DNA of 43,679 nucleotides from IMG/VR virus record IMGVR_UViG_2711768009_000009; one strand, 5' to 3'. Source of the stretch: a virus. Lineage: Duplodnaviria; Heunggongvirae; Uroviricota; Caudoviricetes. Below are positions 6,561 to 6,697 of this stretch, in pieces; within the stretch, counting starts at the first letter, position 1, and each line of letters begins with the position of its first letter. Below the pieces are notes generated by a model, which had not been told where the DNA came from, did no database searches, and saw nothing but the letters and a program-made list of their open reading frames with translations. A program made the translations under genes and the position numbers.

Positions 6561-6656
6561 TATCCCTCCCAATTATTGACATGGTGTTGACACCGGTAAT
6601 ATCTGTTAGGTAAAAAGGTGCACTGCATTTTTTGCTTTGGATATAACGATCTTTTT

Positions 6657-6697
6657 GCCGCCGGTTTCTTGTTTTCCCTTACCGGCGGCATTTTTTT
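6657..6697 (+). terminator. Orphan plus-strand intrinsic terminator just beyond the 3' end of the NanS-like gene
   Basis: 9-bp GC-rich stem GCCGCCGGT/ACCGGCGGC with 15-nt loop followed by TTTTTTT on the plus strand; no plus-strand CDS ends here. Confidence 0.5.

Follow-up and report, generated by a model that had tools for sequence, protein, structure and literature searches.

A predicted EcOnc33-family small RNA gene convergent with the esterase gene of a Mu-like prophage

The 43,679-nucleotide viral sequence IMGVR_UViG_2711768009_000009, hereafter referred to as the window, most likely contains a small-RNA gene with its own sigma-70-type promoter, located in the spacer between a carbohydrate esterase gene and the gene for a DUF1378 small membrane protein and predicted to be transcribed towards the former. 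Judging from sequence, we put at about 80% the probability that this gene is an allele of EcOnc33 and that its product is an RNA made by the lysogen, most likely Hfq-dependent and acting in trans. The predicted RNA (6623-6697, +; ~75 nt) is delimited by a covariance-model match, by promoter geometry and by the T-tract that constitutes its 3' end. The initial annotation of this region had described an orphan plus-strand terminator and had raised a small RNA as one possible explanation. The latter suggestion is supported by full-length homology to EcOnc33 in the same gap and on the same strand (covariance model R1, E=1.6e-14), and the terminator, instead of being an orphan, is assigned by the R1 score of the whole element (81.3 bits) and by the EcOnc33 homology to a small-RNA gene of ~75 nt.

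Genomic context

The window represents a transposable prophage of the Mu type, in minus-strand orientation. Domain matches identify Mu transposase domains (39736-41823), MuB (38721-39662) and Mom (4479-5186), and an 81-aa ORF (5170-5415, -) with a clear Zn_ribbon_Com match encodes Com. Placed between a serine invertase gene (8845-9417) and com/mom is a module typical of the lambdoid late region, encompassing a SASA/DUF6645 carbohydrate esterase of the NanS-p type (6705-8759, -; Pfam SASA 1.5e-13, DUF6645 7.4e-68, and RefSeq annotation of an identical prophage), the DUF1378 small membrane protein (6378-6560, -; Pfam DUF1378 9.4e-32) and DUF826 (6088-6342, -). The predicted RNA gene lies on the opposite strand in the 144-nt spacer that extends from the esterase stop codon (6705-6707, -) to the DUF1378 start codon (6560-6558, -), and is convergent with the esterase gene. 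The DUF1378 ribosome-binding site (RBS; 6563-6568) is 19 nt from the -35 hexamer of the small RNA. At the other end of the spacer, the esterase stop codon and the T-tract of the small RNA are 8 nt apart in the window; in L017 and L038 (Sakai) the esterase frame reaches into the terminator T-tract, which reads as an A-run on the sense strand, and the stop codon overlaps the small-RNA 3' end.

Several other features of this prophage emerged from the analysis. A plus-strand ORF (5627/5660-5920, 86-97 aa) situated between com and DUF826, opposite to all its neighbours, corresponds to the RefSeq 'hypothetical protein' WP_000571916.1, an uncharacterised cargo gene with promoter-like sites at 5606-5692 for which a Pfam search returned no match. 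Two masked runs of N, at 9412-9668 (257 nt) and 10800-11030 (231 nt), flank ~1.1 kb of sequence adjoining the serine invertase, tail-fibre and assembly genes, which is where the inverted repeats of an invertible region resembling the Mu G segment are expected. Finally, the identical RefSeq prophage (L002 3172-3371) has com annotated with a frameshift, whereas the window shows the 81-aa ORF described above; the com start or frame upstream of mom may have been mis-called.

Terminator and promoter

The terminator hairpin occupies positions 6657-6689 of the plus strand, with arms GCCGCCGGT (6657-6665) and ACCGGCGGC (6681-6689) enclosing a 15-nt loop, and is followed by a T7 tract (6691-6697) of the kind that mediates termination and usually forms the Hfq-binding 3' end. 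Direct reading yields a GC-rich stem of 9 bp, extended to 10 bp in ViennaRNA by the closing pair U6656-A6690, and the computed energy of the hairpin is -19.5 kcal/mol. Because the hairpin is followed by AAAAAGAUCG when read on the minus strand, the terminator is expected to act one way, on the plus strand only. A program-made terminator scan of the window missed this hairpin because it permitted only loops of 3-8 nt, against the 15 nt present here. A custom scan allowing loops of 3-18 nt, with a perfect stem of 8-9 bp containing at least six G/C and at least six T within 9 nt, returned the 6657-6697 site as the sole plus-strand match in the whole 43.7-kb window, and one weaker terminator site on the minus strand (2058-2077). 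The 9-bp GC stem and T7 terminator first reported at 6657-6697 are thus confirmed by direct reading and by the custom scan, and the terminator scoring originally proposed as a check fails with short loops and succeeds with the wider range. The accompanying statement that no plus-strand gene ends there also stands, as no credible plus-strand ORF terminates at 6657-6697. Two plus-strand frames (6618-6935 and 6637-6753) that cross the terminator and continue antisense into the esterase gene were set aside as mechanical ORFs.

Two TTGACA hexamers, at the positions initially listed (6576-6581 and 6587-6592, +), lie 65-80 nt upstream of the terminator and are accompanied by a TAATAT element (6597-6602, +). 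A lone TTGACA is unremarkable, since the plus strand of the window contains six instances against nine expected by composition; a pair within 30 nt, by contrast, is found only once in the window. Comparison with relatives indicates that the conserved promoter consists of the second TTGACA (6587-6592) as -35 and, exactly N18 downstream, a -10-like TAAAAA (6611-6616, +), and not of the TAATAT originally taken as the promoter element. By direct reading, the upstream TTGACA is a possible alternative -35 for which TAATAT could serve as -10 across a suboptimal 15-nt spacer; in class I relatives (defined below) this hexamer varies (TTGATA, TCGACA, TTAATA) and TAATAT is TAATAC in most. If used, the upstream pair might give rise to an additional minor, longer transcript of ~88 nt. 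The TAAAAA hexamer is non-canonical and lacks the highly conserved final T, so that the strength of the putative promoter is uncertain, and a simple consensus promoter scan found nothing at the locus because it demands T at position 6.

With the second TTGACA and TAAAAA as the conserved promoter, the transcript is predicted to measure about 75 nt (6623-6697) and not the ~90 nt first estimated. We infer the 5' end at ~6623 from the homologous CTGC start of PasA and PasC together with promoter geometry, and assign it no firmer status since the PasA 5' end may itself come from processing of a longer transcript (Zhu, Shabalina & Storz, 2026 preprint; hereafter Zhu et al.). The predicted RNA folds with an energy of -23.0 kcal/mol, compared to -11.6 ± 2.5 kcal/mol for shuffled sequences (z = -4.6; 0/200 shuffles as good). 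Its 5' region (6623-6655, +; CUGCAUUUUUUGCUUUGGAU...) is weakly structured in this fold and constitutes a mostly single-stranded, putative seed.

Homology to EcOnc33

EcOnc33 is an Hfq-binding small RNA encoded by prophage Sp6 of E. coli O157:H7 Sakai. Five Hfq-CRAC data sets contain a peak for it, and the probe AAATGTCGTTATATCCAAAGCAAAACATGCAGGAC detected it as a band of ~71 nt on Northern blots (Tree et al., 2014, Mol Cell, Table S2; PMC4104026). The complement of this probe matches the Sakai genome exactly between ECs_1527, encoding a 9-O-acetyl-N-acetylneuraminic acid deacetylase, and ECs_1528, encoding a DUF1378 protein, on the strand opposite to both. Alignment of the window with the O157 EcOnc33 locus extends over the whole element, at a mean column identity of 89%; blastn gives 79.7% for promoter plus RNA. 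A covariance model (R1) built from seven variants, including Sakai EcOnc33 and leaving out the window allele, matches window positions 6617-6701 over its entire length (model positions 1-85 of 85; 81.3 bits, E=1.6e-14), and its search of the window returned nothing else below E=2. One feature of the family consensus, a small 5' hairpin, is not preserved in the window, where the R1 alignment shows mismatched pairs. Probe mapping, whole-length alignment and the R1 match together identify the window element, at the level of sequence, as an allele or variant of EcOnc33.

The two loci share the slot between a NanS-p-type esterase and DUF1378, the convergent orientation, the -35/N18/TAAAAA promoter and a GCCGCCGG/CCGGCGGC terminator stem with U-tract. 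They differ in host element, which is a Mu-like transposable prophage for the window and a lambdoid prophage for EcOnc33, and in the terminator loop (15 nt versus 24 nt), the window stem being one pair longer. The seed carries a G -> U change relative to Sakai EcOnc33, at 6629. Together with the Mu-like host, this substitution is what the window adds to EcOnc33, and the novelty is modest. A discrete Hfq-binding RNA of ~70-80 nt is known for the Sakai allele only, from Northern, Hfq-CRAC and RNase E-CLASH data (PMC4104026; PMC5286369); positions 6623-6655 of the window are the counterpart of both the Hfq-CRAC peak and the arcA-ligated part of EcOnc33 in RNase E-CLASH. A full-text literature search for 'EcOnc33' found no paper, the RNA being documented only in supplementary tables. 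The family is also absent from Rfam, since, with the E-value limit set at 1, an Rfam search of the O157 sequence (L001) returned no match at the EcOnc33 position.

Relationship to PasA, PasC and other prophage small RNAs

PasA and PasC of EPEC E2348/69 are Hfq-dependent, Northern-validated small RNAs (Pearl Mizrahi et al., 2021; PMC8550237) that sit between a sialate esterase gene and the next gene with '> < >' directionality (PMC8550237 Table S6). At their loci, a TTGACA is followed after ~25 nt by the RNA start and then by a large-loop GC-rich terminator with a T7 tract adjoining the esterase end. The window element shares with them the slot directly downstream of, and convergent with, a sialate-esterase gene, the possession of an own promoter and terminator, the TTGACA-N18 geometry and the distance from TTGACA to RNA start. 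PasA and PasC are of similar size (78-85 nt), with a GC-rich large-loop terminator and U7, but their body and terminator stem are unlike those of the window (GCCAGCAC or GCCAGCG versus GCCGCCGG), and the E2348/69 slot is not followed by DUF1378 or DUF826 genes. A five-way alignment including PasA and PasC shows 60% mean column identity, concentrated in the promoter and T-tract, and global alignment scores exceed those of shuffled sequences only modestly (z = 3.7 for PasC and 5.2 for PasA). R1, a class I model, gave no match at the Pas loci (L003/L004). The Pas family has been defined by blastn with the E2348/69 sequences, and its terminator-stem seed GCCAGCAC is absent from the window element; EcOnc51/52 are the EHEC homologues of PasA/PasC. 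By its position, the predicted window RNA is part of a wider set, comprising PasA, PasC and EcOnc51/52, that occupies the slot just downstream of the esterase in E. coli prophages.

Inspection of the E2348/69 PP2 locus revealed a second complete unit between PasA and the esterase stop codon (L003 2458-2580, -; NC_011601.1 ~743257-743379), consisting of TATTGATAATATATTGACA, a ~64-nt body and a PasC-like GCCAGCG/CGCTGGC terminator with T7. Its position is that of the 3' end of the 236-nt 'minor' PasA form, and it may represent a separate, unlisted small RNA.

Other known prophage RNAs are more distant. The anti-sRNAs AgvB and AsxR are likewise short, Hfq-bound and convergent with a cargo gene, with a conserved 3' part and a variable 5' part (PMC4104026), but measure 51-60 nt and occupy the lambdoid 'moron' site upstream of the esterase, on its other side (L001 6364-6423); no AgvB or AsxR match was obtained with Rfam in the window region. 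Rfam searches of 4000-10000 and 6500-6760 produced sub-threshold matches only. The sole family matching the element on its own strand was Esr41 (RF02676), whose model aligned at full length (positions 1-74 of 74) to 6617-6699 (+), with E-values of 0.76 over 6 kb and 0.033 over the 261 nt searched. That the element is a copy of Esr41 is nonetheless extremely improbable, being refuted by score and synteny: the match reaches 22.2 bits against a gathering score of 102, the matched letters belong mostly to the terminator and U-runs, and Esr41 resides in SpLE1 (O-island 43/48) near iha and ter (PMC5286369), with no esterase beside it, and not in a Mu-like prophage. A match to STnc480 (17.8 bits versus 72, on the wrong strand) was rejected in the same way as one of terminator and U/A-runs, and HnrS (EcOnc10-12), of 66 nt and found in Sp9, Sp10 and Sp12, is a different small RNA. 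Frequent 'Esr41' cmscan matches have been reported near PasD, upstream of esterase genes (Zhu et al.). As EcOnc33-type elements yield weak full-length Esr41 matches (22 bits), we speculate that some of these may correspond to the esterase-downstream small RNA and not to true Esr41.

Conservation and exchange of the spacer among relatives

Comparative analysis of 33 viral-contig loci encoding DUF1378, together with the Sakai and E2348/69 loci, yielded 23 distinct spacers, which fall into four DUF1378-linked classes (I-IV) and a PasA/PasC type; a parallel search of genome contigs for DUF1378 loci gave pattern matches of which none was confirmed. TTGAC[A/T] occupies a single alignment column in all four DUF1378-linked classes; 22 of the 23 distinct spacers, including PasA and PasC, have it, and L023 has TTGACG instead. 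TAAAAA follows at exactly N18 in 18 of the 23; in L035 it comes after the first TTGACT, and PasA and PasC have CAGAAA at N18 spacing. In PasA and PasC, the hexamer at the -10 position precedes the published 5' end by 6-7 nt. Taking the start 7 nt after this hexamer, predicted and published lengths are 84 versus 85 nt for PasA and 77 versus 79 nt for PasC, and the predictions for Sakai EcOnc33 and the window are 80 nt (Northern ~71) and 75 nt, respectively. At the terminator position, all 23 relatives keep a hairpin of -14 to -23 kcal/mol with differing stem sequences, and a run of 6-8 T lies beside the esterase end in every one of them. None of the 16 stem pairs shows compensatory change among class I members, in which variation is never seen on both sides of the stem. 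Structural support thus has to be drawn from comparison between classes, for which the alignment is uncertain. In class III spacers (L024-L031, ~1340-1480 of each locus, -), the final terminator is preceded by a further, internal hairpin that resembles a terminator (ACTCCTTCGGGAGT followed by ATTTTTATTTT), which suggests two nested or tandem RNA 3' ends.

One relative, L020 (IMGVR_UViG_2609459840_000004), shares the Mu-like backbone of the window (96% identity to 5400-8039), yet has a class II spacer. Its alignment to the window is near-identical up to about codon 15 of DUF1378, diverges through the small-RNA promoter and body and into the terminator loop, and regains identity at the 3' arm of the terminator and the T-tract. 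The swapped region thus corresponds to about 6520-6680 of the window, with breakpoints inside the DUF1378 N-terminus and the terminator loop. Among other relatives, L019 (class I) has the Mu-like right end in common with the window (87.6% identity), and L024 (class III) matches only parts of the window backbone (69-86% identity). Judged by these alignments, what is exchanged in otherwise near-identical prophages looks to be the RNA body, flanked by promoter and terminator elements that stay fixed. A bolder proposal, which we advance tentatively and regard as less probable than not, is that the spacer is a swappable small-RNA cassette for which the promoter (TTGACA-N18-TAAAAA) and the terminator 3' arm with its T-tract act as recombination anchors, and that the window allele has its own target set, as its seed differs at a base pairing with the arcA start region.

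Predicted mode of action

Under the favoured reading, transcription from the resident prophage would start near 6623 and end at the hairpin (6657-6689) and U-tract (6691-6697), releasing an RNA of ~75 nt. Hfq would be bound by the 3' U-tract and hairpin, and the 5' single-stranded region (CUGCAUUUUUUGCUUUGG...) would pair in trans with mRNAs of the host or the prophage. The terminator would also keep this transcript from continuing into the esterase gene in antisense. For EcOnc33, RNase E-CLASH recovered several hybrids of its 5' region, one of which joins this region (CCUGCAUGUUUUGCUUUGGAU) to the start-codon region of arcA and was seen in replicates and in both orientations, with a score of 5.4 (PMC5286369 Table EV7; ECs_5359 is arcA). 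RNAduplex predicts -22.4 kcal/mol for the pairing of the Sakai allele with arcA, a value matched by 0.8% of shuffles; with U6629, as in the window allele, the predicted energy is -17.5 kcal/mol, which 4.8% of shuffles match. Given this weaker pairing, the targets of the window allele may differ or be absent.

The same arrangement could instead point to a cis-antisense regulator acting mainly on the esterase-DUF1378 sense transcript, an idea contained in the initial proposal of a transcript antisense to the junction of the two genes. The predicted RNA is fully complementary to the spacer (6623-6697) in any esterase-DUF1378 read-through mRNA, and pairing over these 75 nt could trigger cleavage by RNase III or RNase E and so tune the expression of DUF1378 and DUF826 relative to that of the esterase, or uncouple it. 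Linkage of the small RNA to the esterase end is, moreover, invariable and independent of its body sequence, and the esterase mRNAs E2348C_0688 and E2348C_1246 are, through their 3' ends, among the RIL-seq partners of PasA (PMC8550237 table S7). The antisense relationship holds for the intercistronic spacer only, however, as the RNA overlaps neither coding sequence nor the DUF1378 RBS (6563-6568); the E2348/69 slot harbours PasA and PasC in the absence of a downstream DUF1378 gene; EcOnc33, PasA and PasC have many trans partners; and a purely cis role would not need Hfq. We consider cis-antisense regulation unlikely as the main function, but it could coexist with action in trans. Less likely still is that the hairpin and T-tract merely stop plus-strand transcription into the esterase gene, started for example at the 5660-5920 ORF or at a spurious promoter, with any short RNA a functionless by-product. 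Such insulation had been put forward as a block to antisense transcription, and is in keeping with the unidirectionality of the terminator and with the presence upstream of a plus-strand gene (5660-5920) followed only by a weak terminator-like site (5965-5979). Yet terminator and TTGACA-N18-TAAAAA are also conserved in Sakai Sp6 and other lambdoid contexts without an upstream plus-strand gene, and the Sakai homologue is bound by Hfq and RNase E, appears as a discrete band of ~71 nt and engages in specific hybrids. Blocking of antisense transcription is thus retained as a possible side effect. Neither cis-antisense action nor insulation explains the conserved promoter or the Hfq/RNase E binding of the homologue, and both are best viewed as possible additions to action in trans.

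A divergent small-RNA promoter at the 5' region of a toxin gene is reminiscent of tisB/istR and zor/orz. The DUF1378 protein, with 60 residues and a hydrophobic N-terminus, might by analogy be a toxin whose type I antitoxin is the predicted RNA, the promoter of which is divergently placed and abuts the DUF1378 5' region. The antisense overlap of such systems is missing here, the RNA (6623-6697) being clear of the DUF1378 RBS (6563-6568), start (6560) and coding sequence. DUF1378 is in addition a late-operon member from the lysis-gene neighbourhood of lambdoid phages, PasA and PasC occupy a slot devoid of any DUF1378 gene, and Rfam type I antitoxin families had no match in the searched region. 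The chances of this explanation being correct are accordingly very slight, and a trans-acting, EcOnc33-type RNA is the reading that we retain.

Distribution and biological significance

The promoter and RNA (6587-6700) were detected by blastn in 355 of 5426 complete E. coli genomes (~6.5%), with the window allele at 99% identity or more in 21 of these and the O157-type allele, at 79.7%, in 316. An identical copy of the window allele is carried by E. coli JE86-ST05 (NZ_AP022815.1, around 810,240-810,350). The RefSeq annotation under the match is 'none' in nearly all genomes among the matches listed. In INPHARED phage records, megablast with the 3.5-kb region retrieved three distant esterase matches only, and blastn with the 136-nt element retrieved no match.

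The locus does not open a new mechanism, and belongs to a known but poorly documented small-RNA family, for which it exposes an annotation gap: a family present in ~6.5% of complete E. coli genomes is without an Rfam family. In pathogenic E. coli, the regulation of the host is rewired by prophage small RNAs such as AgvB, AsxR, Esr41, HnrS and the Pas RNAs; those described are nearly all carried on lambdoid/Stx-type prophages or islands, whereas the window presents the esterase-linked slot on a Mu-like prophage. In the natural allelic series formed by classes I-IV and PasA/PasC, the body varies while promoter and terminator stay constant, which makes the series suited to the study of seed evolution by cassette exchange. 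Should the spacer indeed be a swappable cassette, near-identical Mu-like prophages would carry different host-targeting small RNAs, and the vectors of host-reprogramming small RNAs would include Mu-like phages alongside lambdoid ones of the Stx type.
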